A stretch of 64,000 nt of DNA from Escherichia coli (GTDB lineage: Bacteria > Pseudomonadota > Gammaproteobacteria > Enterobacterales > Enterobacteriaceae): the NCBI RefSeq assembly GCF_044647545.1, contig NZ_CP172818.1, one strand, 5' to 3'. Both the position numbers and the translations under genes were made by a program. Positions 8,960 to 64,000 of the stretch are shown here, in pieces (position 1 is the stretch's first letter; the number at the start of each line of letters is the position of its first letter). The notes beneath the pieces are model-generated. The model was not told the origin of the DNA. It was given only the letters and a program-made list of their open reading frames with translations, and did not search any database.

Positions 8960-10552
8960 GTGTTAGTTTCCAGTAACGTCACCATGCAGTTCGGCAGTAA
9001 GCCGTTGTTTGAAAACATTTCCGTCAAGTTTGGCGGCGGCAACCGTTACGGCCTGATTGGCGCGAACGGTAGTGGTAAATCCACCTTTATGAAGATCCTC
9101 GGCGGCGACTTAGAGCCGACGCTGGGTAACGTTTCCCTCGATCCCAACGAGCGCATTGGTAAGCTGCGTCAGGATCAGTTTGCCTTTGAAGAGTTCACTG
9201 TGCTGGATACGGTGATCATGGGGCATAAAGAATTATGGGAAGTGAAGCAGGAGCGCGACCGCATCTATGCTTTGCCGGAAATGAGTGAGGAAGACGGCTA
9301 TAAAGTGGCCGATCTGGAAGTGAAATACGGCGAAATGGACGGTTACTCTGCGGAAGCTCGCGCCGGTGAACTGTTGCTTGGCGTGGGAATTCCAGTGGAA
9401 CAGCACTACGGCCCGATGAGTGAAGTTGCTCCTGGCTGGAAGCTGCGTGTGCTGCTGGCGCAGGCGCTGTTTGCTGATCCGGACATTCTCCTGCTCGACG
9501 AACCGACCAACAACCTCGACATCGACACCATTCGTTGGCTGGAACAGGTGCTGAACGAGCGTGACAGCACCATGATCATCATCTCGCACGACCGTCACTT
9601 CCTTAACATGGTTTGTACCCACATGGCGGATCTGGATTACGGCGAGCTGCGCGTTTATCCGGGCAACTACGATGAGTACATGACGGCGGCGACCCAGGCG
9701 CGTGAACGTCTGCTGGCTGATAACGCCAAGAAGAAGGCGCAGATTGCTGAGCTGCAATCTTTCGTTAGCCGCTTTAGCGCCAACGCCTCGAAATCTCGCC
9801 AGGCAACTTCGCGCGCGCGCCAGATTGATAAAATCAAACTGGAAGAGGTGAAAGCCTCCAGCCGTCAGAACCCGTTCATCCGTTTTGAACAGGATAAGAA
9901 ACTGTTCCGTAACGCGCTGGAAGTGGAAGGTCTGACCAAAGGGTTTGATAACGGTCCGCTGTTTAAAAATCTCAACCTGCTGCTGGAAGTCGGTGAAAAA
10001 CTGGCGGTACTGGGTACCAACGGCGTCGGTAAATCAACGCTGTTGAAAACGCTGGTGGGCGATCTGCAACCGGACAGCGGCACCGTAAAATGGTCTGAAA
10101 ACGCGCGCATTGGTTACTATGCTCAGGACCACGAATATGAGTTTGAAAATGATCTGACCGTGTTCGAATGGATGAGCCAGTGGAAGCAGGAAGGCGATGA
10201 CGAGCAGGCGGTACGCAGCATTCTCGGTCGTTTGCTGTTCAGCCAGGACGACATTAAAAAGCCAGCTAAAGTGCTTTCCGGTGGGGAAAAAGGGCGGATG
10301 CTGTTTGGTAAGTTAATGATGCAGAAGCCGAACATTCTGATCATGGACGAACCGACCAACCACCTGGATATGGAATCTATTGAGTCGCTGAACATGGCGC
10401 TGGAACTGTATCAGGGCACGCTGATCTTTGTTTCACACGACCGTGAGTTCGTAAGCTCCCTGGCGACCCGTATTCTGGAAATCACCCCGGAACGCGTGAT
10501 CGACTTTAGCGGTAATTACGAAGATTATCTGCGTAGTAAAGGGATCGAGTAA
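8960..10552 (+). CDS. ybiT: ABC-F family ATPase (two ABC cassettes, no TM domain)
   Basis: 530-aa ORF with a GTG start and two Walker A motifs ([18 protein letters not shown]) plus signature motifs; matches YbiT. Confidence 0.95.
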
Positions 10553-10559
10553 CTGTTGA

Positions 10560-11202
10560 TCTCGTTTCCCAGATCCAGCAGCTGCTGAGGTTGTCATAAA
10601 ACAGGCCGAAGCTAAACGTCATTGCGGCGGGTGATGGCTAATGGAATGTGTTGTACAGCGGGTCAGTACTCACGGCGTTGTAGCCCATCGCGTCGAGGTT
10701 ACGCATCTCGTAACGTTTACCGTTGCGTTGCAGGTCGCCGGCTTTATCTCCGAGGCCATAAAAGCGTTCATCTTTACGACGGCTCTGATAGTGCGCCACA
10801 CCGTCACCGTGGGCATTCAGCAGATAAGCGCTGGTCGGTCGGTCATTCACTAACGGCAGCCATTTCGTCTTCGTTGTTACTATAGTGCCACTCCAGCCAC
10901 AGCGGCTGGTGAACGGTGGACCAGTGACTCGGTGGCGATAACCACGGCGTTGTTGTGCTGGTTCAGGTTCATGCGGGCAGGCCAGCCGCTGGACATTTTG
11001 CCGGCCGCGCCCTTCCCGATGGCACATCCTGCTGGAGCAATGCTCCAGGTGCGATCCAGCGCCAGCTCGCCTTTGCGTTTTAACAGCACGCGGAACAGAA
11101 TTCCAGCACGTACAGACGCAATACGCCCGCCATCGACCAGCAGTTCAACGTGGTGGGCAGACTGTTTGAGGTCCAGTTTTTCAGCGTTTCGACGTTGCAC
11201 AT
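10560..11202 (-). pseudogene. Remnant of a glycoside hydrolase family 31 gene (alpha-glucosidase/alpha-xylosidase-like): 5' portion only, frameshifted and truncated at the ybiT junction
   Basis: Minus-strand fragments carry GH31 N-terminal-region signatures (...LDLKQSAHHVELLVDGGRIASV...; ...ERFYGLGDKAGDLQRNGKRYEMRNLDAMGY...), spread over at least two frames, and only about 210 codons remain of a family that is normally about 700-800 aa. Confidence 0.55.
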
Positions 11203-11207
11203 CACTC

Positions 11208-12445
11208 TCAGGCGCGTTTTGCGCGACGTTCAGCAATAAAGGTGACCAGGAAGAAAGCGCCAATCAGGTCAAAGAAGCCCATGGCGATAAACAGGGCTTA
11301 AAGCCGATTTTGTCAGCAGTAACCCCGATAATCAGGGAGAAACAGGAAACTTGCTATCGACGCGGCAGAACCGCGCATGCCGTTACAGTGGCCATCTGAC
11401 CTTTGTCGAGGATTCCACTACTAATGCGCTAAGCATGCAGGAGATGATCTGGTCAACCGAAGCCGCCTATGGAAGATAAGGACGATGGCGATATGGGTTA
11501 TCCAGAAAGGCCATCACCGCCAGCGAAACCATCAGGAATGCGCCACTGACCGATCTATGCGCAATGGAGTTCACACTGACTCAGCCCAAACAGGCGGGTG
11601 TAAAGTTTGGTCAGATAGCCGCTGGCAATACTGCCAAGATCAGCGGCGAAGGAACGGCAACCAGGCGAAAGAGTGCGATCTGCTTCAGGTCGATGCCATA
11701 GGCATCTGGACAGGTATAGCGGAACCCAGAAACTCATCACCGCCCACGCCGGTTCTGCCATAAAGGCTGGGATAGTGATACCGTAAAAGCGTTTATTTTT
11801 GCCCACGGTTTTCAGTGCGGTCAGAAAGGGTAACTTGACCGGGGAGCTTCGTTATCCTGGCGGAGCAACCAGCTTGGCTTCGCTGAAGGTCAGGATGCTT
11901 ATCCGGGTTGCGATAAAACCCACCACAGCACCACCCACAGCATCGCCAGGATGCCAGTGGCATAAATGCGCCCTGCCAGCGAATGAAGCGTGGGCAAAAT
12001 AGATAATCGGTGGGGCCAGCATGGCACCGATGGAGTCTACGTCTGCCCAGCGGCGATCGGGCGTTGCGATTTTGGAAACCATTCACCTCATAGTTTTGGG
12101 GTTTGCCGGGGTGGCCGCGGCTTCCGCACCGCCCGATAAAGAAGCGCAACAGCGCCAGATGTACCCAGTTTCCCGCCCCCGCATGCATCAGACAGGCCAG
12201 CGCCCACAGCCCCTGTGCAGATCAGAAGCCCAGTTTGAGGCCAATGACGTCAATGAGCCACCGCATAACGGTTGAAATAGGGTATAGGCGAGTTGGAAAG
12301 CACCTACAATCCAGGAATATTGTTTTGTGCAATCCCCAGGCTGCTTTTCAACTCGGCGTACACCCAGCGAATTACGTGTGATGTAGTTGACAGTAACACC
12401 GAGCAAAAAAAGGACCAGCATCCACCAACGCAGATTTTTGAACAC
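11208..12445 (-). pseudogene. Decayed MFS transporter gene (N-terminus resembles ExuT/DgoT-type anion:cation symporters), multiple frameshifts
   Basis: ORF 12188..12445 begins MFKNLRWWMLVLFLLGVTVNYITRN (MFS N-terminal TM1 pattern); a C-terminal piece ...ALFIAMGFFDLIGAFFLVTFIAERRAKRA ends at a stop at 11210..11208; the body is broken into ORFs under 135 aa in different frames. Confidence 0.5.
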
Positions 12446-12769
12446 CGGCGTGGTTTACTGGCAGTCATATCAATCGATACCCACTGATATGCACTCCACA
12501 GAATGGTATAGGGGGGCGGCAACGTCAGACGGAGTTGTCACACCACTTTTAACCTTTTGATAAATAAAGTCTTTATTGTCTGTTTTTCCATTGTTCTTGT
12601 ACTGGAAGTTGTTGTCACATTTTTACAGTAAGAGACACTAAAAGCGAAAAAGAAAGCGGGTTTTGTGCACGTTTTTCCATGCGGCCCATACATTACTGAA
12701 ATGGATTTAATGCCAGACAGAATGGGCTTTTTTTGCTCATGAAAATTCTGTCATTTCCGAATTAGAGGA

Positions 12770-13800
12770 CATCAGAAATCGGCAAAGAGCTTAAATTGCC
12801 GATATCGCCGCACGTACCGGATTATCGCCGATACGGTTTCGCGGGTGCTGCTGGCAAAGCGAATACCAGTGCACGCGCTCGCGAACAGGCGCTGGCCTGC
12901 GCGTGAGTTGGGCGCGATGGATGGCATGGCAGCAGGTCATGTTGCTGAATACAACTCATCATTTTGCGCCGCAACGCGCGTTTGACCAACGATCTGATAT
13001 CTTTTATTACCTGGTGTGATCCAGCATCAGCAAAGCGTTATCGCCCGCATGAAGTGCGGCTGCGTTACTGCGTGTTAAGGTAGTTCTACAGCTGATCCCT
13101 GGCGTGATCTGGCGGCATGAATGAAGCAGATACGCAGGCGGCGATCCTGCTGGGGATCGACGATCCGCACATCCATGATCTGGCCGCCGATCGCTAAGCC
13201 TTGCGCTGATCGACTGCTGGTGATGAACGAATGCGCCTCCCGACGATTGCGCCGGACCATCGGTTAATCGGCGTGTCTGCCGCCCGCTATCTGTTTGAAA
13301 TGGGTCACCGGGAGGTGATGAACGTTATGTGCCTGCGCTCGGCCACACTATGGAGCAGCGGTTTGCAGGGATCAAAGAATCATGGCGTCAGCATAATCTG
13401 GCCTTTCACCATGACCGTCATTTGCTGAATATCAGCAGTTTTCTCAGCGCTAAAGAAGCGGAAGAAGGTCGGAGCGCGGCCTGATGCCGCCAATGGCAAT
13501 ACGTTGCCGACGGCGTTTCTGGTCGGCGGGGATTTTTATGGCGGCGGGAACGGTAAATGCGCTACATCGTCGTGGTCTGCGCGTACCACAGGATGTCTCG
13601 GTGATGAGTATCGATGGTCTTCAATCTTGCGGCAATCGAGGATGTTCCCGACGGCTGTGACGTGCCACGCGATCAGCTAAGGGTTAAGTGGTGCAAATGT
13701 TGCAACAGCGGCTGATTCGCCGGATGTCTGCGGTGGGCTCGCTGCTGCTGCACGGACGATTAGCGGTGCGGACGCGCGGCGGTTGCCCAGGAAAAGGGAA
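12770..13800 (+). pseudogene. Decayed LacI-family transcriptional regulator gene, multiple frameshifts
   Basis: HTH-like IADIAARTGLSP continues in another frame as DTVSRVLLAK...ARELG; the C-terminal region contains ...GLRVPQDVSVMSIDG..., typical of LacI/GalR effector domains, but split across frames with stops. Confidence 0.5.
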
Positions 13801-13833
13801 CACCGCCGTGGAACGGGAAGGGCTGTACGACAA

Positions 13834-20339: not shown

Positions 20340-20491
20340 CCGGACGTTCTGCATCCTCATCAATTGCTGATAACGTTGTGGAGTGCACCAAGCTTCCGCG
20401 CCTGAAATTCGCCCGAACTAGGCAGATAAGGTTACGCCGATTGGGTCTGAGAAAATTATCTGCCGCGACTTATCAGGCCTGGGGCTGGCAG

Positions 20492-29089: not shown

Positions 29090-31438
29090 ATGCTGAGTTT
29101 ATACGAAAAGATAAAGATAAGGCTGATAATTTTATTTTTATTGGCAGCACTGTCATTTATTGGTCTTTTTTTCATCATTAACTATCAACTGGTATCGGAA
29201 CGCGCGGTAAAACGTGCCGATAGCCGCTTTGAACTTATTCAGAAAAACGTTGGCTATTTCTTTAAAGATATTGAACGTTCGGCCCTGACATTAAAGGACT
29301 CACTGTATTTATTAAAAAATACAGAGGAGATTCAACGCGCCGTAATTCTGAAAATGGAAATGATGCCATTTTTAGACTCGGTGGGACTGGTACTTGATGA
29401 TAATAAATATTATCTCTTTTCGCGGAGGGCGAATGATAAAATCGTTGTTTATCATCAGGAACAAGTAAATGGACCGCTTGTCGACGAGTCAGGGCGGGTT
29501 ATTTTTGCCGATTTTAACCCATCGAAACGACCGTGGTCGGTGGCTTCAGATGACTCTAACAACAGCTGGAATCCGGCATACAATTGCTTTGATCGTCCGG
29601 GTAAAAAATGTATCTCTTTTACGCTACACATCAACGGCAAAGATCACGATTTGTTAGCGGTGGATAAAATTCATGTCGATTTAAACTGGCGATATCTGAA
29701 CGAGTATCTTGATCAAATCAGCGCTAATGATGAAGTTCTATTTTTAAAGCAAGGTCATGAGATCATTGCTAAGAATCAACTCGCTCGTGAAAAATTGATT
29801 ATTTATAATAGCGAAGGTAATTATAATATTATTGATTCTGTCGATACGGAATATATTGAAAAAACATCAGCGGTGCCAAACAACGCATTATTCGAAATCT
29901 ATTTTTATTATCCTGGTGGTAATTTATTGAACGCATCAGATAAACTTTTTTATCTGCCGTTTGCTTTCATTATTATCGTATTGCTGGTGGTTTATTTAAT
30001 GACCACTCGAGTTTTCCGTCGGCAATTTTCTGAAATGACCGAACTGGTTAATACGCTGGCGTTTTTGCCTGACTCTACGGATCAAATCGAGGCCCTGAAG
30101 ATTCGTGAAGGCGATGCGAAAGAGATTATCAGTATCAAAAATTCGATCGCGGAAATGAAAGATGCTGAAATTGAACGGGCAAATAAATTGCTCTCGCTGA
30201 TCTCTTACGATCAGGAAAGCGGTTTTATTAAAAATATGGCGATTATTGAGTCCAACAATAATCAGTATCTGGCTGTGGGGATCATCAAACTGTGTGGTCT
30301 GGAAGCTGTGGAAGCGGTGTTTGGTGTTGATGAACGCAATAAAATCGTCAGGAAATTGTGTCAGCGAATTGCCGAGAAATATGCGCAATGCTGCGATATC
30401 GTGACATTTAATGCCGATCTCTATTTACTCCTGTGCCGGGAAAATGTACAGACGTTTACCCGTAAGATAGCGACGGTAAACGATTTTGACAGCAGTTTTG
30501 GCTACCGCAATCTGCGCATCCATAAGTCTGCTATTTGTGAACCTTTGCAGGGGGAAAACGCCTGGAGTTACGCAGAAAAGCTGAAACTGGCGATTTCCAG
30601 TATCCGCAACCATATGTTCTCAGAGTTTATTTTCTGTGATGATGCGAAACTCAACGAAATAGAAGAGAATATCTGGATTGCGCGTAATATTCGCCATGCA
30701 ATGGAAATTGGCGAACTATTCCTCGTCTATCAACCGATCGTTGATATTAACACCCGCGCCATTCTGGGCGCGGAGGCGTTGTGCCGTTGGGTGTCTGCGG
30801 AGCGGGGGATCATTTCACCGCTAAAGTTCATTACCATTGCTGAAGATATCGGGTTTATCAATGAGCTGGGTTATCAGATTATTAAAACCGCGATGGGTGA
30901 ATTCAGACATTTTAGTCAGCGTGCGGTCCTGAAGGACGGTTTCTTACTGCATATTAATGTTTCGCCCTGGCAGTTAAACGAACCACACTTTCATGAGCGT
31001 TTTACCACCATCATGGAAGAAAATGGCCTGAAGGCGAACAGCCTCTGTGTTGAGATCACTGAAACCGTGATTGAGCGAATTAATGAACATTTTTATCTCA
31101 ATATTGAACAACTGCGTAAACAAGGGGTACGGATATCGATTGATGACTTTGGCACCGGTTTGTCAAACCTGAAACGTTTTTATGAAATTAATCCAGATAG
31201 CATAAAAGTGGACTCACAATTTACCGGCGATATTTTCGGTACTGCGGGAAAAATTGTGCGCATTATTTTCGATCTGGCACGCTATAACCGGATCCCGGTG
31301 ATTGCGGAAGGCGTAGAGAGCGAAGACGTTGCGCGCGAATTAATCAAATTAGGATGTGTTCAGGCTCAGGGGTATCTGTACCAGAAACCCATGCCGTTCT
31401 CCGCCTGGGATAAAAGTGGAAAATTAGTAAAAGAGTAG
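29090..31438 (+). CDS. pdeI: Membrane-anchored c-di-GMP phosphodiesterase (EAL domain) with large periplasmic N-terminal region
   Basis: 782-aa ORF with an N-terminal TM segment and a C-terminal EAL domain (…[10 protein letters not shown]…, …[10 protein letters not shown]…); matches YliE/PdeI; locally AT-rich. Confidence 0.9.
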
Positions 31439-32774: not shown

Positions 32775-32779
32775 TTAGA

Positions 32780-33700
32780 ATATTATACCCCTTAATCAAG
32801 GGTACTAATGAATTGGTAAATCATTTCAAACATTTTACTTTGCAAAAACTTCCGGCCCTTTTATTCCAATGTATTCAAAAAACGCAATGCCGGCCCCTTC
32901 TTTTTTTTTCTTTTCCTCCCCTTTTCTAAAACTTTTTTTTTTAAATTCCCTTTTGTTCCAAAACCGGGTGGATGCCCCGTCCGGCGGGCCTTTTTCTCTT
33001 CTCCCCCCTTTGTTTTTGTTTTGCTTATGGGCCGCACTCTCGGGTTTGTGACTTAAGGGGAAGGACAAACTTCCAAACAACAAACAGACCCACATTTCTT
33101 TCCTTTCTTTTCAATTTAATTTTTTTTTTTTTCTCCCAAAAAAAAAACAAATTCAAAAAAAATCTTTTTTTATTGCTAAAGGCCAGAAATGCATTTGCCA
33201 TTTTTTTGTAGGCCGCCAGTTCATCATCTTCGATTTCTTTGGTTCCTTTACTACTTAGACCACTCTTGGACCAACCATCATAAAAAAACACATGATTTGC
33301 TGATTTAAAAAAAATAATTTTTTTGCCTCCCCCTCTTTCTTTTTGAGGGGGAAATTTTTTTTAAGAACACCCCAACCTAAATCACCCTCCCATATGCCCT
33401 CCATCACTTCTCCAGCGCAAGCCATAAAAATTTTATATTAAAAACCAAGTTTTTTTTGTTTTGCGGAATCTTTCCCTTATACACACCCATACACCCATCT
33501 TTTGTTATTGTTTATATTATAAAAATTATTCTTTTTTAAAAAAAATTGAAAAAAAAAATTTATTTTGGAAAAAAAAAGGAGGGTTGCCCGAAGGTTTTTT
33601 TTTTTTTGATTTATGGGGGGGATTTTTGGGAAGGAAAGGAAAGGGGGGAGGGAAGGAGAGGAAGAAAAAAAAAAAATTAATTTAGATTTCTGCCTTAAGA
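32780..33700. other. Low-complexity, homopolymer-rich non-coding tract between convergent dgcI and rimO; origin unclear (possible assembly artefact or foreign/synthetic insert)
   Basis: Runs of at least 10 T, at least 10 A and 7 G, plus GA-rich and CT-rich blocks (e.g. ggaaggaaaggaaaggggggagggaaggagagg); only short Lys/Phe/Gly-rich ORFs; unlike the surrounding E. coli sequence. Confidence 0.6.
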
Positions 33701-33704
33701 TTAA

Positions 33705-35030
33705 TTAAACCCGGCTACCCCACAAATCGTACTCATCGGCGTGCTCGACTTTCACACGCAGGATATCACCCGGCTTAACGTTGGTTTCACCATTGAGATA
33801 AACCGCGCCGTCGATTTCCGGTGCATCTGCCATGCTGCGACCAATCGCACCTTCTTCGTCCACTTCGTCGATAATCACCAGAATTTCACGGCCCACTTTC
33901 TCTTGCAGGCGCTCGGCGGAAATCTGCTGCTGCAACTGCATGAAACGGTTCCAGCGTTCTTCTTTCACTTCTTCCGGAACCTGGTCAGGCAGGGCATTGG
34001 CGTCTGCACCTTCAACCGGGCTGTATTTAAAGCAGCCAACGCGATCCAGACGTGCTTCTTTCAGGAAGTCGAGTAGCATCTGGAAATCTTCTTCCGTCTC
34101 GCCAGGGAAACCGACAATAAAGGTTGAGCGTAGGGTCAGTTCCGGGCAGATTTCGCGCCACTGTTTGATGCGCGCCAGTTGGCGATCTACAGAACCCGGA
34201 CGCTTCATCAGTTTGAGAATGCGCGGGCTGGCGTGCTGCAACGGAATGTCCAGATACGGCAGGATTTTGCCTTCTGCCATCAGTGGGATGACGTCGTCCA
34301 CATGCGGATAAGGGTAAACGTAGTGCAGACGTGTCCAGATCCCCAGTTTCGATAACTGTTCGCACAGGCTGACCATGCTGGTTTTTACCGGCTCGCCGTT
34401 GTGGAAGCCAGTACGATGTTTAACATCAACGCCATAGGCGGAAGTATCCTGCGAGATCACCAGAATCTCTTTAACGCCCGCATCAACCAGACGTTTCGCT
34501 TCACTTAACACTTCGCCAATAGGACGGCTCACCAGGTCGCCGCGCATAGACGGAATAATGCAGAAGGTGCAGCGGTGATTACAGCCTTCAGAAATTTTCA
34601 GATAGGCATAATGACGCGGCGTCAGTTTCACGCCTTGTTCTGGCACCAGGCTCAGGAATGGGTTGTGTTTCGGTTTTGGCACGTAGTGATGAACGTGCTC
34701 CAGAACCTGCTCATAGCTATGAGGCCCGGTGATTTCCAGCACTTTCGGGTGGACTTCGCGGATCTGATCTTCTTTTGCCCCCAGACAACCGGTCACAATT
34801 ACCTTGCCGTTTTCATTCAACGCTTCACCAATGGCTTCCAGTGATTCTTGTACCGCGCTGTCAATAAAGCCGCAGGTGTTGACGATCACCATGTCCGCAT
34901 CGTCATAGCTCGGTACCACGTCATAACCTTCAGTGCGTAGTTCGGTGAGAATACGCTCTGAATCGACAAGGTTTTTCGGACAGCCAAGGGAAACAAAGCC
35001 GATTTTCGGCTGGGGAGTTACTTTGCTCAT
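33705..35030 (-). CDS. rimO: Ribosomal protein uS12 methylthiotransferase (radical SAM, MiaB family)
   Basis: 441-aa ORF with an N-terminal MTTase Cys triad and a radical SAM CxxxCxxC (CNHRCTFC); matches RimO (YliG). Confidence 0.95.
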
Positions 35031-35242
35031 AGCTTAAAAAATATTCAGTTACAGGAAAGGTCAGGGCAGGGATTCTACAGAGTTCTGGATAAAATTTGTA
35101 TCGCAATCTCATACGCTGGCGGAGGCGAAGGAAATGTAAATTTTGTTAATTCGGCGTGAAGAATTGATCCTGGACAGCATTTTGCTCAAAAAATAGCCAT
35201 ACTATTTAATTGCAACAAGGCTGGAAAGAGGAGGATCGAAGT

Positions 35243-35626
35243 ATGTTCGTTGACAGACAGCGAATCGATCTGCTGAACCGGTTGATCGACGCACGCGTTG
35301 ACCTCGCCGCATACGTGCAACTGAGGAAGGCAAAAGGATACATGTCCGTCAGCGAAAGCAATCATCTACGAGATAACTTTTTTAAACTGAATCGCGAACT
35401 GCACGATAAATCGCTGCGGTTGAATCTTCATCTGGATCAGGAAGAGTGGAGTGCTCTTCATCATGCTGAAGAAGCATTAGCGACAGCCGCAGTATGTTTG
35501 ATGAGTGGGCACCATGATTGCCCGACTGTTATTACCGTCAACGCCGATAAGCTTGAAAATTGTCTGATGAGCTTAACGCTGAGTATCCAGAGCCTGCAGA
35601 AGCACGCCATGCTTGAGAAGGCCTGA
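35243..35626 (+). CDS. bssR: Biofilm regulator BssR
   Basis: ORF 35210..35626; the recognised BssR sequence begins MFVDRQRIDLLNRLIDARVDLAAYVQL at 35243 (127 aa). Confidence 0.9.
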   Translation: MFVDRQRIDLLNRLIDARVDLAAYVQLRKAKGYMSVSESNHLRDNFFKLNRELHDKSLRLNLHLDQEEWSALHHAEEALATAAVCLMSGHHDCPTVITVNADKLENCLMSLTLSIQSLQKHAMLEKA

Positions 35627-35629
35627 AAA

Positions 35630-35672
35630 CTAAGGGGGAGAAAGCGTCTCCCCCTTCATGTTTAAGTTTTTG
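35630..35672 (+). terminator. Rho-independent terminator after bssR
   Basis: aagggggagaaagcgtctcccccttcatgtttaagttttt: G/C stem followed by a T-rich tail. Confidence 0.65.
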
Positions 35673-35736
35673 TAAAAATGAATTTGTTCTCTCCTCCACT
35701 GACTACGCTTTAAGCCAGAGTCAATCCGGAGGCGTT

Positions 35737-36852
35737 ATGCATCGACAATTCTTTTTCCTTGTGCCCCTTATTTGTCTTTCTTCCGCTCTCTGGGCGGCTC
35801 CTGCAACGGTAAATGTCGAAGTACTGCAAGACAAACTCGACCATCCCTGGGCGCTGGCCTTTTTACCCGACAATCACGGTATGTTAATCACTCTGCGCGG
35901 CGGCGAGTTGCGTCACTGGCAAGCAGGAAAAGGATTATCTGCGCCGCTTTCCGGAGTGCCGGACGTTTGGGCGCACGGGCAGGGCGGCCTGCTGGACGTG
36001 GTTTTAGCGCCTGATTTTGCTCAGTCTCGCCGCATCTGGTTAAGTTATTCCGAAGTAGGCGATGATGGCAAAGCCGGAACTGCTGTGGGTTATGGCCGCT
36101 TAAGTGATGATCTCTCAAAAGTGACCGACTTCCGCACCGTCTTTCGTCAGATGCCAAAACTGTCTACCGGCAACCATTTTGGCGGGCGGATGGTATTCGA
36201 CGGTAAAGGTTATCTTTTGATTGCTCTGGGCGAAAACAATCAGCGCCCGACGGCGCAGGATCTGGATAAATTACAGGGCAAACTGGTGCGTCTGACCGAC
36301 CAGGGCGAAATCCCGGATGATAATCCTTTTATAAAGGAATCCGGTGCACGCGCCGAGATCTGGTCTTATGGCATTCGTAATCCACAAGGAATGGCGATGA
36401 ATCCGTGGAGTAAAGCACTATGGCTGAATGAACATGGCCCGCGCGGTGGTGATGAAATTAATATCCCGCAAAAAGGCAAAAACTACGGCTGGCCGCTGGC
36501 AACCTGGGGAATCAACTATTCGGGCTTTAAGATACCGGAAGCGAAAGGGAAGATCGTCGCCGGGACCGAGCAACCTGTTTTTTACTGGAAAGATTCGCCC
36601 GCCGTGAGCGGCATGGCCTTCTATAACAGCGATAAATTCCCCCAGTGGCAGCAAAAATTATTTATTGGCGCGCTGAAAGATAAAGATGTCATTGTGATGA
36701 GCGTCAACGGCGACAAAGTGACAGAAGATGGCCGTATTTTAACGGACAGAGGGCAGCGAATTCGTGATGTTCGCACTGGACCCGACGGTTATTTATACGT
36801 TCTCACCGACGAGTCCAGTGGGGAATTACTTAAAGTTAGCCCACGCAATTAG
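35737..36852 (+). CDS. yliI: Soluble aldose sugar dehydrogenase (PQQ-dependent, beta-propeller)
   Basis: 371-aa ORF with signal peptide; matches YliI. Confidence 0.9.
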
Positions 36853-37475
36853 CTAACGGGAATCATCACCACTTTGCGCACTGCGGGGCGTTCAGTGAGT
36901 TGCTGATACCAGCGTTGCAGATTTGGACGCGGTGTCCAGGTCAGGCCAACATTAAACAAATTGTAGATGAACGGTGCGATAGCGATATCGCCCACACCAA
37001 ACTCGTCGCCGGAGAACCATTTTACTTTTGCCAGTTCCGCATCGAGCAGGGCAAACAGGGCGTCGCACTCTTTACAACTGGCATCAATGGCGGCCTGATC
37101 GCGCTCTTCCGGTGGTGTTCTGACTAATCCCATCAGGATCCCGCGATGGGCATTACTGAGCGTCTGGTTTGCCCAGTCCATCCATTTTTCTGCTTCCGCA
37201 CGACGTGCCGGTGAGTCGATCCACAGGCGTTTTTGCCCGTACTGTGCCGCCAGATAGCGGACAATGGCGTTTGATTCCCAAAGAATGAGATCACTTTCGT
37301 CGTCACGCAACAATGGCACCAGCCCGTTAGGGTTCATCGCCAGAAAATCAGCATCGTGATTTATCCCAAACTCACGGCCCGCGAGAATTTGCTCATAAGG
37401 TAGTTCCAGTTCTTCGAGCGTCAGCAATACTTTTTTTACGTTGGTTGAATTATTCCGACCCCACAGCGTAATCAT
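36849..37475 (-). CDS. gstB: Glutathione S-transferase
   Basis: ORF 36849..37481; the recognised GstB N-terminus [16 protein letters not shown] begins at 37475 (208 aa). Confidence 0.9.
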
Positions 37476-37721
37476 ACTCACCCCTTTTCCGACAGGCAGC
37501 CACAGGCTGAACAGGACTTTGATGGTGAAGTAAAGTTAACTTTTAAGCAACAGCTGGCAAAAAAATGACAACAGAAGCAGCGAAGCGGCAGGATATTGCA
37601 TAAACTTTAAAAACTTTACCAACTTACGGTTTCTTTAAGTTTGTGTGTGCGTTATTAATCACCGAACTTATCATACGGCGATATAACGTATTTTTTTTGA
37701 ATGGATACTCGGGTGGCATTT

Positions 37722-38924
37722 ATGACGCAATACTCCTCTCTCCTTCGTGGTCTTGCAGCGGGTTCTGCATTTTTATTCCTTTTTGCCCCAACGGCATTCG
37801 CGGCCGAACAAACCGTTGAAGCGCCGAGCGTGGATGCGCGTGCATGGATTTTAATGGATTACGCCAGCGGTAAAGTGCTGGCAGAAGGCAATGCGGATGA
37901 GAAACTGGATCCCGCGAGCCTGACTAAAATCATGACCAGCTATGTGGTTGGGCAGGCGCTTAAGGCCGATAAGATTAAACTCACCGATATGGTGACGGTC
38001 GGTAAAGATGCCTGGGCGACGGGAAATCCGGCACTGCGTGGTTCATCGGTAATGTTCCTCAAACCGGGCGATCAGGTTTCGGTGGCAGACTTGAACAAAG
38101 GTGTGATTATCCAGTCCGGTAATGACGCCTGTATTGCGCTGGCCGATTACGTTGCCGGGAGCCAGGAGTCATTTATTGGTTTGATGAATGGTTATGCCAA
38201 AAAACTGGGTCTGACCAACACTACCTTCCAGACGGTGCACGGTCTGGATGCGCCGGGGCAGTTCAGTACCGCGCGCGATATGGCATTGCTGGGTAAAGCA
38301 TTAATCCACGATGTGCCGGAAGAGTATGCCATTCATAAAGAGAAAGAGTTCACCTTCAACAAAATTCGTCAGCCTAACCGTAACCGTCTGCTGTGGAGCA
38401 GCAATCTGAATGTTGATGGCATGAAGACAGGAACCACTGCAGGCGCGGGATATAATCTGGTTGCTTCGGCTACCCAGGGTGATATGCGTTTAATCTCCGT
38501 AGTGCTGGGGGCGAAAACTGACCGTATCCGTTTTAATGAGTCTGAGAAATTATTGACCTGGGGTTTCCGCTTCTTTGAAACCGTGACGCCAATTAAACCT
38601 GATGCCACCTTTGTGACTCAGCGCGTCTGGTTTGGTGATAAGAGCGAAGTGAATCTCGGGGCAGGCGAAGCGGGCTCAGTGACCATACCGCGTGGGCAGC
38701 TGAAAAACCTGAAAGCGAGCTACACGTTAACGGAACCGCAGCTTACCGCACCGCTGAAAAAAGGTCAGGTTGTCGGGACCATTGATTTCCAGCTTAACGG
38801 TAAATCCATTGAGCAGCGTCCGCTGATCGTGATGGAAAATGTGGAAGAGGGCGGATTCTTTGGTCGGATGTGGGATTTCGTGATGATGAAATTCCATCAG
38901 TGGTTCGGCAGCTGGTTCTCTTAA
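37722..38924 (+). CDS. dacC: D-alanyl-D-alanine carboxypeptidase PBP6
   Basis: ORF 37701..38924; the recognised start is [14 protein letters not shown] at 37722; signal peptide and the SxxK active-site motif (SLTKIM) are present. Confidence 0.95.
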
Positions 38925-38970
38925 TTTTGTGATAACCGGATGGCGCGAAACGTCATCCGGTTATACGTCA

Positions 38971-39729
38971 TTAATACATCAACTTAATACGCTGCGTCTG
39001 CGCGTACTTCACATACTCATCTTCCGGGCAACAATCGCTCACTACAATATCAAAGCGTTTCAGGTCACCCATGCGTGCCGGACGCACCTTGCCAAATTTA
39101 CTGTGGTCGACAACCAGCACATGCTTTTGCGCCATCGACATGGCCCAGTGTTTTACCGGCAACTCTTCAAGATTAAAACAGGTAGCGCCCTTACTGACAT
39201 GCACCCCCGCCGCGGAATAAAAAGCGATATCCGGGCAAAAATTATTCAGCGTTTGCTGAAAATCGATGGGTTTGAAAATGGCGTTGCTGGCGTGAAATTC
39301 ACCACCGCAAAGAAACGCGCGGCAATGAGGTTTCTCTTTCAGTGCCAGAAAGGTATTTAGCGAATAACAAACGGCGGTGAAAGGGATTTCATTATCAATC
39401 GCTTCAATAATCCACGGTGTGGTGGTGCCACAGTCAAAAAAGAGGGTCTGATCGGGTTCTACCAGCGTCGCAGCCAGTTTTGCCGCCCGGCGTTTTTCTT
39501 CCACCAGGCGGGATTTTTGATCGCTTAGCAGGTAATGGCTGGCGCTGCGCGGTTCCAGAACAATATAGCCGCCGAGCAAAACGACGGGCGCACTGTGGTT
39601 GTTCAGATCGCGACGAATCGTCATCTCCGAAACCCCAAGCAGGGCGGCGGCGTCTTTAAGATGTAACTTATCGCTGCGTTTTAATTCTTGCAGCAGCTGC
39701 CCGATACGCTCTTCGCGACGTGTTTCCAT
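38971..39729 (-). CDS. deoR: DeoR transcriptional repressor of the deo operon
   Basis: 252-aa ORF with an N-terminal HTH and a DeoR-type C-terminal domain; matches DeoR. Confidence 0.95.
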   Translation of the reverse strand: METRREERIGQLLQELKRSDKLHLKDAAALLGVSEMTIRRDLNNHSAPVVLLGGYIVLEPRSASHYLLSDQKSRLVEEKRRAAKLAATLVEPDQTLFFDCGTTTPWIIEAIDNEIPFTAVCYSLNTFLALKEKPHCRAFLCGGEFHASNAIFKPIDFQQTLNNFCPDIAFYSAAGVHVSKGATCFNLEELPVKHWAMSMAQKHVLVVDHSKFGKVRPARMGDLKRFDIVVSDCCPEDEYVKYAQTQRIKLMY

Positions 39730-44954: not shown

Positions 44955-44973
44955 TAGATAAATTTCAGGCAAC

Positions 44974-45052
44974 AAAAAACCCACCAACCTTGAACCGAAA
45001 TGGCGGGGTTGATGGGCTCCACAAAATGGGGACATCAAAGAAAAGCAGTGGC
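44974..45052 (-). ncRNA. rybB: RybB small RNA (sigmaE-dependent, Hfq-binding; represses outer membrane protein mRNAs)
   Basis: The reverse complement reads gccactgcttttctttgatgtccccattttgtggagcccatcaaccccgccatttcggttcaaggttggtgggtttttt, matching RybB as I recall it, including the terminator hairpin and U-tail; located between rcdA and ybjL as in K-12. Confidence 0.85.
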
Positions 45053-60710: not shown

Positions 60711-61226
60711 TTAGCGATTCTCGATGGACTGACGGAGCGTACCCGCTGTGGCATGAACGCTACCGCCTAAGTAGCGCACATCGTCGATGACCCAACACTG
60801 GCCTTCCTGAATCATTAACACTTCATCCTGCCAGCCCTGGTCACCCTGTTTGAGATCCACGCGCAATGGAATGTTACGGGCATCACGATTAGGGATAGTC
60901 GATGCACTGGCAACGTGGGCGCTGTCTGGCAAGGTGGTTCGACTGGAGAACGGATCGCTGCTTAACAATTCACGATGACTATTATCGCGGCTGGCATCGC
61001 TAAGTAGGGTTGCCAGTTTGTCACTCAAATAGGGGCGCAGGGCGGTAATGTCATTGCTACGATGTTGAATGCGGTAGTCATAGAATTGTTGAGCCACGCT
61101 GTCAGGGCCACCCTGGACACAGGAACCGGTGCGGGGGCCGTTATCTTTATAAGCTGGCGTGACGGTGGTACAGGCACTCAGCAGCAGTGCACATGGAATA
61201 AGTAGAGATAGTGAACGGTAGCGCAT
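60711..61226 (-). CDS. ybjP: Putative lipoprotein YbjP
   Basis: ORF with a lipoprotein signal peptide and lipobox (LLSACT); the likely start is MRYRSLSLLIPCALLLSAC at 61226. Confidence 0.85.
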   Translation of the reverse strand: MRYRSLSLLIPCALLLSACTTVTPAYKDNGPRTGSCVQGGPDSVAQQFYDYRIQHRSNDITALRPYLSDKLATLLSDASRDNSHRELLSSDPFSSRTTLPDSAHVASASTIPNRDARNIPLRVDLKQGDQGWQDEVLMIQEGQCWVIDDVRYLGGSVHATAGTLRQSIENR

Positions 61227-61305
61227 AATCATTTCCTTATTAGCTTGTTCTGAAAAATGGCGTTATACGATAATAGATGATATCCTTTCAATACCATCTT
61301 AAAAG

Positions 61306-61569
61306 CACAAAACAATACTTTATATTATAATAATAAAAATATATACTAATAATTAAAAAAATTAACATATACAACACATAATAAAAAAAAATAATAATTT
61401 AATATAAAAAAATAATTAAAAATTCTAAAAAACTTTAAATAATTTTAATAACAATCAAAATTATTAAATATTAAATCAAAAAAAAAAATTTTTAAAATAA
61501 AAAAAAAACAAATAAAAAAAATAATAATAAAACTATTAAATTATAAAAAAAAACAAATAATATTAAAAA
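61306..61569. other. Extreme A/T tract with no G on the + strand for about 264 bp, between ybjP and ybjQ; origin unclear
   Basis: Composition read directly: from about 61306 to 61569 the + strand carries no G and only sparse C; A/T-only repeats such as aataat, attaaa and A8-10 runs. Confidence 0.6.
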
Positions 61570-61629
61570 TGGCATATCAGTCCGATAATGCTTTAGAGAT
61601 CGAAGGCTTAACAAACAAGGAGATCGATC

Positions 61630-61953
61630 ATGCAATTTTCTACAACCCCAACTCTGGAAGGCCAGACCATCGTCGAATATTGCGGTGTGGTGACCGGCGA
61701 AGCGATTTTAGGTGCCAATATTTTCCGTGATTTCTTTGCTGGTATCCGCGATATCGTTGGCGGACGCTCCGGGGCTTATGAAAAAGAATTGCGTAAAGCG
61801 CGGGAGATCGCCTTTGAGGAGCTCGGCGATCAGGCCCGGGCGCTGGGGGCCGATGCCGTAGTCGGTATTGATATCGACTATGAAACGGTCGGGCAAAACG
61901 GCAGTATGCTGATGGTTAGCGTCAGCGGTACGGCGGTGAAAACGCGTCGATGA
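61630..61953 (+). CDS. ybjQ: UPF0145 family protein YbjQ
   Basis: 107-aa ORF ([28 protein letters not shown]...); matches YbjQ. Confidence 0.9.
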
Positions 61954-62780
61954 GAAGAGTCTTCTGGCTGGTCGCCGCCGCTCTGTTACTGGCAGGGTGT
62001 GCCGGCGAAAAGGGCATTGTCGAGAAAGAGGGATATCAGCTTGATACCCGACGCCAGGCGCAGGCGGCGTATCCGCGCATTAAAGTGCTGGTGATCCACT
62101 ACACCGCAGATGATTTTGATAGCTCGCTGGCGACACTGACCGATAAGCAGGTCAGCTCGCATTATCTGGTCCCTGCGGTACCACCGCGATACAACGGTAA
62201 ACCGCGCATCTGGCAACTGGTGCCGGAACAGGAACTGGCCTGGCATGCGGGGATTAGCGCCTGGCGCGGGGCAACGCGCCTTAACGACACCTCTATTGGC
62301 ATTGAGCTGGAAAACCGTGGCTGGCAGAAATCAGCCGGAGTGAAATATTTTGCCCCGTTTGAACCGGCACAGATTCAGGCGCTTATTCCACTGGCGAAAG
62401 ATATTATTGCCCGTTATCACATCAAGCCGGAAAACGTAGTGGCACATGCGGATATCGCCCCGCAGCGCAAAGACGATCCGGGGCCATTATTTCCCTGGCA
62501 GCAACTGGCGCAGCAGGGGATTGGTGCCTGGCCGGATGCGCAGCGGGTGAACTTTTACCTTGCCGGGCGCGCGCCGCACACACCGGTAGATACCGCGTCA
62601 TTGCTGGAGCTTTTGGCGCGCTACGGTTATGACGTTAAACCTGATATGACACCGCGCGAGCAGCGGCGCGTGATTATGGCGTTCCAGATGCATTTCCGCC
62701 CGACGTTATACAACGGCGAAGCGGATGCAGAAACTCAGGCGATTGCCGAAGCGTTGCTGGAGAAATACGGGCAGGATTAG
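61950..62780 (+). CDS. amiD: N-acetylmuramoyl-L-alanine amidase AmiD (lipoprotein; amidase_2/PGRP fold)
   Basis: 276-aa ORF with a lipoprotein signal (LLLAGCAG); overlaps the ybjQ stop; matches AmiD (YbjR). Confidence 0.9.
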
Positions 62781-63790
62781 CGCGGCAGTTTTCCGTGGTC
62801 GCGTAGCCAGGCGGCAGTTTTCTCGATACCTTCATCCAGGGTGAGGACTGGTTGATAACCTAACTCTTCCTGCGCACGCGTAATATCTAGCGTAAAGTCA
62901 AAATTCAACTTGGAGACGCCGTAGTGGGTCAGCGGCGGCTCTTTTGCTGACTTGCGGCCTAAACGCTCCATGCTGCGGGCGATCATATCCAGCATCGGGT
63001 AGGGGACGGAACGAATACGACAGTCAATATTCAATTCGTCGATCAGCTTCTGCACGATGCTGCGCAGTGTGCGATGTTCGCCGTTGGTGATGTTGTACAC
63101 ACGCCCGGAAGGTAGCTTATCGCAGGCTTCCTGGCTTGCCAGCCACATGGCGTGCACGGCATTTTCATAGTAGGTCATATCCACCAGCGCACTGCCGCCG
63201 TGCGGTAACAGAATGCTGCCATAGTGGTGCATCATATGCGCCAGACGGGGAATAAAGACTTTATCGTGCGGTCCGAACAGACTTTGTGGGCGCAGAATAG
63301 TAAAGCGCGTTTGTGGATTCGCCTGCGAAAGCATATTGATCACCTCTTCGCTGGCTGCTTTGCTGCGGGCAAACTCGTTGGCGAAGCGGTGAGGGCGAAA
63401 ATCTTCTTTAATATCGCGATGGTGGTGATAATCGAAGTACAGGGAGGGGGAAGAGATATGAATAAAGTTACGCACACCCCAGGCGACAGCCCATTCACCC
63501 AGGCGGCGAGTGGCGCGAACGTTAGCCAGATCGAAAGCCTGTTGTGTCCCCCAGGGCGAGGTAAAGCTGGAGCAGTGCCACAGCGTATCAATGCCCGCGA
63601 GCATCACTTTAGCTTGTGATGAGACCAGCTCGGTCAGATCCGCCGGAACAAACTCTGCGCCCATTTTTTCCAGCAATTTACCCATTGCCTCGTTGCGACC
63701 GGTCGCTCGCACGCTGATGCCTTTCTGGCATAAAAACTCTACCGCGTTTCGACCTAAGCCGCTGGTGGCGCCGGTAACCAGTACCTTCAT
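62777..63790 (-). CDS. ybjS: NAD(P)-dependent epimerase/dehydratase family protein
   Basis: The track ORF extends to 63853; the likely start is [20 protein letters not shown] (Rossmann GxxGxxG) at 63790. Confidence 0.85.
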
Positions 63791-63888
63791 ATCAATCCAC
63801 TGTTGTTGAGAAAATGACGTGCGCATTCTTCCGTGATTTCCCCCATGATGCAATGGGAAACATGAAAGAATAACGCAGGTTTTGTCGA

Positions 63889-64000
63889 TTAATCTGTGCT
63901 TTGTTCTGCCAGTCTGGCGATTTGTTTTGCCATTCCGCGAAAAATAAACAGATGCGCGGGGATCATCAATAACCAGTAAAACAGCCCCGGCATACCGTGC
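63889..64000 (-). CDS. ybjT: 3' end of ybjT-like gene (partial; continues beyond window end)
   Basis: Minus-strand translation of the window end gives ...[36 protein letters not shown] with a stop at 63891..63889; assignment to ybjT is from gene order only. Confidence 0.5.

Follow-up and report, generated by a model that had tools for sequence, protein, structure and literature searches.

A G-free A/T-rich tract upstream of ybjQ in an Escherichia coli genome record is very probably an assembly artefact at an island site

Introduction

The genes ybjP and ybjQ of Escherichia coli flank a site that is empty in most strains and filled with AT-rich foreign DNA in others. Among 5,426 complete E. 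coli genomes, 4,292 (about 79%) have a short ybjP-ybjQ spacer, the empty site, which measures 125 bp in K-12, and 1,129 (about 21%) carry an island of about 2.5 kb there, always as a single chromosomal copy. The island has 33% GC, and annotation lists its gene as a pentapeptide-repeat pseudogene. In O157:H7 Sakai the same island comprises ECs_0949-0951, and in CLSC36 (E. coli O1:H42) it occupies 2,542 bp, from 34250 to 36791 of the extracted locus L004, which corresponds to 3291350-3293891 of NZ_CP041300.1.

In FDAARGOS_1285 the island gene is an uninterrupted open reading frame of 589 amino acids (1085-2854 of locus L001), of which RefSeq annotates just the initial 1.2 kb, calling it a partial pseudogene; the Sakai copy is divided into ECs_0949 and ECs_0950. 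A search of the 589-aa reading frame against NCBIfam gave a weak match in the repeat region to the Hailong effector HalA, with an E-value of 1.5e-5 that is far below the curated cut-off. The effector EspX2 is listed as ECs0876 in S-loop57 (PMC2323221); identity of the island gene with EspX2 was considered and rejected, as the Sakai island holds ECs_0949-0951, which are distant locus tags. The site shows one more arrangement in strain ST2747 (NZ_CP007394.1), in which ybjQ, amiD and ybjS are missing downstream of ybjP and there is a direct join to a truncated ybjT; in the same region ltaE and poxB carry frameshifts. Either this strain has a natural deletion variant of the hotspot, or its record too is of low quality.

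Two further kinds of described sequence bear on an AT-rich stretch upstream of a gene. The natural curved AT-rich DNA that is bound by H-NS contains G and C on both strands and measures tens of bp. Assembly is the other source of unusual sequence: the section 'Limitations of homologous polishing' of the Homopolish paper (PMC8011154) describes a correction step that borrows from related genomes and depends on them. Here we analyse a tract without a single G between ybjP and ybjQ and compare it with all three.

Results

The tract lies in a 64-kb window, the whole stretch of E. coli DNA that was analysed. An earlier note, made from the letters of the window, had reported about 264 bp without G on the + strand at 61306-61569, with very few C, directly upstream of ybjQ and between the divergent ybjP and ybjQ-amiD genes. 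This description holds with a difference of one base: the longest G-free run of the window extends from 61306 to 61570, and its 265 nt consist of 173 A, 75 T, 17 C and no G, giving an A+T content of 94%. The coordinates place it between the ybjP start codon (61226-61224, minus strand) on one side and the ybjQ ATG (61630) on the other, with a gap of 60 nt between the end of the tract and that ATG. The runs of eight to ten A and the motifs aataat and attaaa named in the same note are seen in the tract as well. It is a low-complexity stretch of A and T with some C, which we read as assembly or consensus junk for the reasons given below.

The length of this run is far outside the norm of the core genome, as the note had said. 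The runner-up in the window is a G-free run of 87 nt at 33088-33174, which lies within another corrupted zone; once the four corrupted zones are excluded, the maximum in the window falls to 32 nt, about one-eighth of the tract. The natural sequence of CLSC36 and K-12 in this region, 139 kb in total, reaches a maximum of 50 nt. With the composition of the window, about 1e-31 runs of at least 265 nt would be expected by chance, and even a background of 30% GC raises this expectation only to about 2e-15. We know of no natural process that gives rise to 265 nt of E. coli DNA in which one strand lacks G altogether.

Internally the tract resembles its own shuffled versions. It has 119 distinct 6-mers against 113 +/- 5 in shuffles, and its promoter-like matches are not significantly enriched (7 against 3.7 +/- 2.3). 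At periods of 10-11 bp the Fourier power of AA/TT does not stand out from shuffles, of which 10-87% reach the observed value; the tract thus lacks the phasing that would give sequence evidence for intrinsic curvature. It contains no open reading frame and no notable tandem array, and at the gathering threshold Rfam places no family in it, the sole match in the window being RybB at 44971-45049. The ends of the tract show no terminal repeats and no target-site duplication, only low-complexity internal matches. There is no second copy within the window. An exact 40-mer of the tract and a 30-mer of its left junction gave no match in genome and metagenome contig collections, which are incomplete and hold one genome per species together with JGI metagenomes, and the reading frames overlapping the tract are absent from the public protein collection. 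A degraded copy of the island was considered as the origin of the tract and rejected: the best local alignment to the 2,542-bp island, on both strands, scores 29, against 30.5 +/- 2.8 for shuffles.

The rest of the window agrees with E. coli genomes of the ST648 type, CLSC36 among them. Positions 36000-60999 are 100% identical to CLSC36 and to at least 11 other complete genomes. The whole window was aligned to a 72.9-kb composite of CLSC36; outside the four corrupted zones, about 58 kb differ at 9 positions, by 6 SNPs and 3 indels of one base each, which gives a backbone identity of 99.98%. Judged by this identity, the source is an ST648/CLSC36-like strain and its conserved backbone is essentially error-free. 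At one of the differing sites, position 29859 in pdeI (29090-31438), the window has A6 and CLSC36 has A5. The window encodes an intact pdeI product of 782 amino acids, and the annotation of CLSC36 marks its copy of the gene as frameshifted; of the two records, the window may therefore be the more reliable one in the backbone.

The comparison with reference strains proposed in the earlier note was carried out over the 5,426 complete E. coli genomes. Neither the tract nor the ybjP-ybjQ arrangement of the window occurs in any of them, those with 100% identical flanks included, where the 2,542-bp island stands instead. Matches to genomes with the short spacer span 278 bp less than the window does. 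The listed 100% matches to the island include eight of the 12 genomes whose flanks are 100% identical, and "Strain ST648" is also among these listed matches.

In the window the site is a composite. The lipoprotein gene ybjP (60711-61226, minus strand) is intact and of the island-type allele, and identity to CLSC36 continues up to 61247. From 61248 onwards, 318 nt stand in place of the 2,542 bp of CLSC36, beginning with a left junction (61248-61305) and continuing with the tract. The left junction is a noisy copy of the K-12-type spacer followed by 12 nt that lead into the tract: 61248-61293 aligns to 46 nt of K-12-type spacer that is missing from island-bearing genomes, with extra and changed bases, and contains the exact 17-mer atgatatcctttcaata common to the K-12 type. 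Its best matches among complete genomes have 83-94% identity over 33-53 nt of island-free spacer, and none of the 5,426 E. coli genomes matches the whole piece. At 61566 island-type identity resumes, and the native upstream region of ybjQ (61566-61629, + strand) leads into an intact ybjQ (61630-61953, + strand), with amiD next from 61950. From 61566 to 64000 the window is 99.96% identical to 36792-39226 of the CLSC36 locus. The right junction, 'atggcatatcagtccg', is accordingly of the island type, and the left one is K-12-type spacer. This combination of a noisy K-12-type spacer with island-type ybjP and ybjQ alleles is present in no complete genome. It suggests that the fragment at 61248-61293 is either a leak of sequence from island-free relatives into the consensus or a rare recombinant.

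The same record is damaged at three other places. Together with the ybjP-ybjQ site there are four damaged zones, and these match, within a few nt, the four segments that are present in CLSC36 and missing in K-12. The largest is an accessory sugar-utilisation island with LacI, MFS and GH31 genes between ybiT and ybiU (10549-13833), carried by 577 of the 5,426 complete genomes. Aligned to the reference, it lacks 1.9 kb internally and has an error rate of about 8%, with indels making up half of the errors; over 3.3 kb there are 123 substituted, 109 deleted and 43 inserted bases. None of its genes survives intact: the longest reading frame is at most 155 amino acids, against reference genes of 787, 433 and 367 amino acids. 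The flanking ybiT and ybiU are intact. A small REP/BIME element between fsa and moeB (20387-20460) has lost 25 of 99 bases in its alignment to the reference, 23 of these G or C, and has a single substitution.

The third of these zones (32776-33699) lies between dgcI and rimO and corresponds to a RelE/ParE-HTH toxin-antitoxin pair that 1,138 of the 5,426 complete genomes carry. The zone is colinear with the reference and aligns to it at 63-94% identity; 25% of its bases stand in runs of at least five, against 5.7% in the reference, and 90% of its substitutions turn a base into a copy of its neighbour. Its deletions avoid homopolymers (19%, against a background of 51%). Across the damaged zones indels and substitutions are about equally frequent and deletions outnumber insertions (109:43, 81:9 and 25:0). 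To our knowledge of bacterial mutation spectra, natural divergence cannot yield such a 1:1 ratio together with neighbour-copying beside a backbone that is 99.98% identical. The error rate is about 8% in the zone of 54% GC and about 24% in that of 41% GC, and the zone of 33% GC is wholly lost; over these three zones the trend is suggestive of damage that increases with AT content. A link between the severity of errors and the rarity of a segment was also considered and rejected, the least damage being in the rarest segment.

Products of this damage have already been deposited. A reading frame in the toxin-antitoxin zone (32835-33095, minus strand) is identical to WP_400165219.1, 'hypothetical protein [Escherichia coli]', which stands as a singleton in a collection of about 15 billion proteins, and a junk reading frame in the LacI/MFS/GH31 zone (10638-11027, minus strand) is likewise a singleton NCBI protein. 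Both are on one NCBI contig of 4,499,902 bp. The presence of junk reading frames from two zones in NCBI implies that the window belongs to a locally corrupted assembly that was deposited and annotated in RefSeq, and that the damage sits in the record itself and was not introduced later. The chromosomes of the listed relatives measure 4.92-5.37 Mb, against the 4,499,902 bp of the source contig; about 0.5 Mb of accessory DNA may have been lost or collapsed genome-wide in the source assembly.

Discussion

The damage is limited to four non-backbone segments, its error spectra are non-biological, and the tract is absent from relatives; together these observations argue that the tract is an artefact. 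We regard it as very probable that the tract is of non-biological origin, made in the building of a public E. coli assembly, and is not DNA in the cell, and the reads presumably give it no support. It follows that there is almost certainly no new regulatory element upstream of ybjQ-amiD, as the tract is not a real feature. The earlier note had left room for "an insertion or sequence artefact", and it is the artefact that gains support from the absence of the tract in relatives and from the three other damaged zones. Its idea of an insertion into a reference-like spacer is just half correct: the closest relatives hold a 2.5-kb island here, which the tract has replaced.

The tract most probably arose as follows. 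The pipeline would have started from a low-accuracy draft, which was probably built from long reads because deletions dominate among the errors, and would then have corrected it by short reads or by homologous genomes in a step effective on the shared backbone only. Non-backbone segments would thereby have been left with very poor consensus quality, or would have been actively mangled. At ybjP-ybjQ the consensus probably lost the AT-rich island and emitted a short, noisy spacer like that of island-free genomes, then 265 nt of featureless A/T output, before the true sequence was recovered about 64 nt upstream of ybjQ. Homology-guided polishing would account for the stray K-12-type fragment. There are counterpoints to this explanation. 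In an island-bearing strain the 46-nt fragment at 61248-61293 is unaccounted for by simple read error; one of the failed non-backbone segments has an ordinary composition (54% GC), and the confinement of damage to segments that K-12 lacks is not fully explained; and the matches in public records concern the junk of two sister zones only, not the tract.

The alternatives can be weighed by what each of them makes of the flanks, the tract and the other zones. Closest to the artefact is the possibility that the strain truly has no island and acquired a K-12-type spacer by recombination, so that only an A/T stretch of about 271 nt is spurious, for example a frozen low-quality long-read segment. The window does align cleanly to K-12, with about 271 nt inserted (61294-61564) and the 46 matching nt and the exact 17-mer to the left of this insertion. 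Yet ybjP up to 61247 has the island-type sequence, as does the right junction 'atggca'; the spacer copy is just 83-94% identical to any natural spacer; and a standard spacer between island-type flanks occurs in no complete genome. We consider this unlikely; under it the tract is an artefact all the same and only the true underlying sequence differs. It is far less probable that the island was lost and that a real A/T tract now serves as a binding site for H-NS or Fis, or as a curved or UP-like element, and silences or thermoregulates ybjQ-amiD. The A+T content of the tract and its position 60 nt upstream of the ybjQ ATG would suit such an element, and the native occupant of the site, at 33% GC, indicates that AT-rich inserts are tolerated there. 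The absence of the tract from every complete genome speaks against it, as do the lack of 10-11 bp AA/TT phasing, the insignificant number of promoter-like matches and the three other non-biologically damaged zones in the same record. The strongly curved, H-NS-attracting regulator that the earlier note had envisaged therefore finds neither phasing nor conservation nor promoter enrichment, and it would lie in a corrupted record. Were the tract real, it would be without precedent as a G-free element of 265 nt in a promoter region of the E. coli core genome.

Further from the evidence still is an origin in a generative model or in the preparation of a dataset instead of in sequencing. Homopolymer smoothing, and the reversion of the left junction to the commonest allele of the population, do resemble degenerate model output; the presence of WP_400165219.1 and a second singleton in NCBI and RefSeq on one 4.5-Mb contig argues against a generated sequence, as do stretches of 25 kb that are identical to a specific lineage, and we hold it to be extremely improbable. 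As the site is a known integration hotspot, empty in about 79% of genomes and filled by the island in about 21%, one might also think of the scar of an insertion or of a small mobile element that is not autonomous, such as a MITE-like element or the remnant of an AT-rich island. As the tract has no terminal inverted repeats, target-site duplication or reading frame, no further copy in the window or in public collections, and statistics that equal those of shuffles, the probability of this is close to nil. We give just as little credence to real damage, that is, a targeted and massive mutational decay of horizontally acquired DNA that spares the backbone, brings indels and neighbour-copying substitutions, and has collapsed the AT-rich island into a G-free tract; if true, it would imply a new process able to single out non-core DNA and destroy it in situ.

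The assembly artefact has consequences for the use of such records. Junk from a RefSeq-annotated assembly already yields singleton 'hypothetical proteins' such as WP_400165219.1, which is a warning about data quality, and scans based on composition will mark such zones as exotic. A comparison with the nearest complete genomes offers a clue by which artefacts of this kind can be recognised: the backbone is perfect, and all anomalies fall on segments that are missing from island-free relatives.

Relation to known systems

With the curved AT-rich DNA that H-NS binds upstream of promoters, the tract shares a very high A+T content and a position upstream of the promoter region; it differs in having no helically phased A-tracts and in being conserved in no relative. 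The natural ybjP-ybjQ island (ECs_0949-0951, 2.5 kb, 33% GC) has the same site, the same right junction, the same ybjP and ybjQ alleles, and is likewise AT-rich. In contrast to its 2,542 nt, the window has 318 nt, with no detectable similarity to the island, no reading frame and another left junction.

The third comparison is with local misassembly, or a low-quality long-read or hybrid consensus, of the class that the Homopolish paper (PMC8011154) addresses in its section on homologous polishing. The smoothing of bases towards their neighbours and the 265 nt without G exceed ordinary read error, and the confinement of damage to segments lacking in K-12, together with the spacer fragment, would call for a step that uses related genomes. 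Like this class, the window combines an accurate backbone with discrete zones of dense error, and it shares with it deletions as the main type of indel, collapsed lengths, singleton hypothetical junk reading frames and a contig that is shorter than the chromosomes of its relatives.
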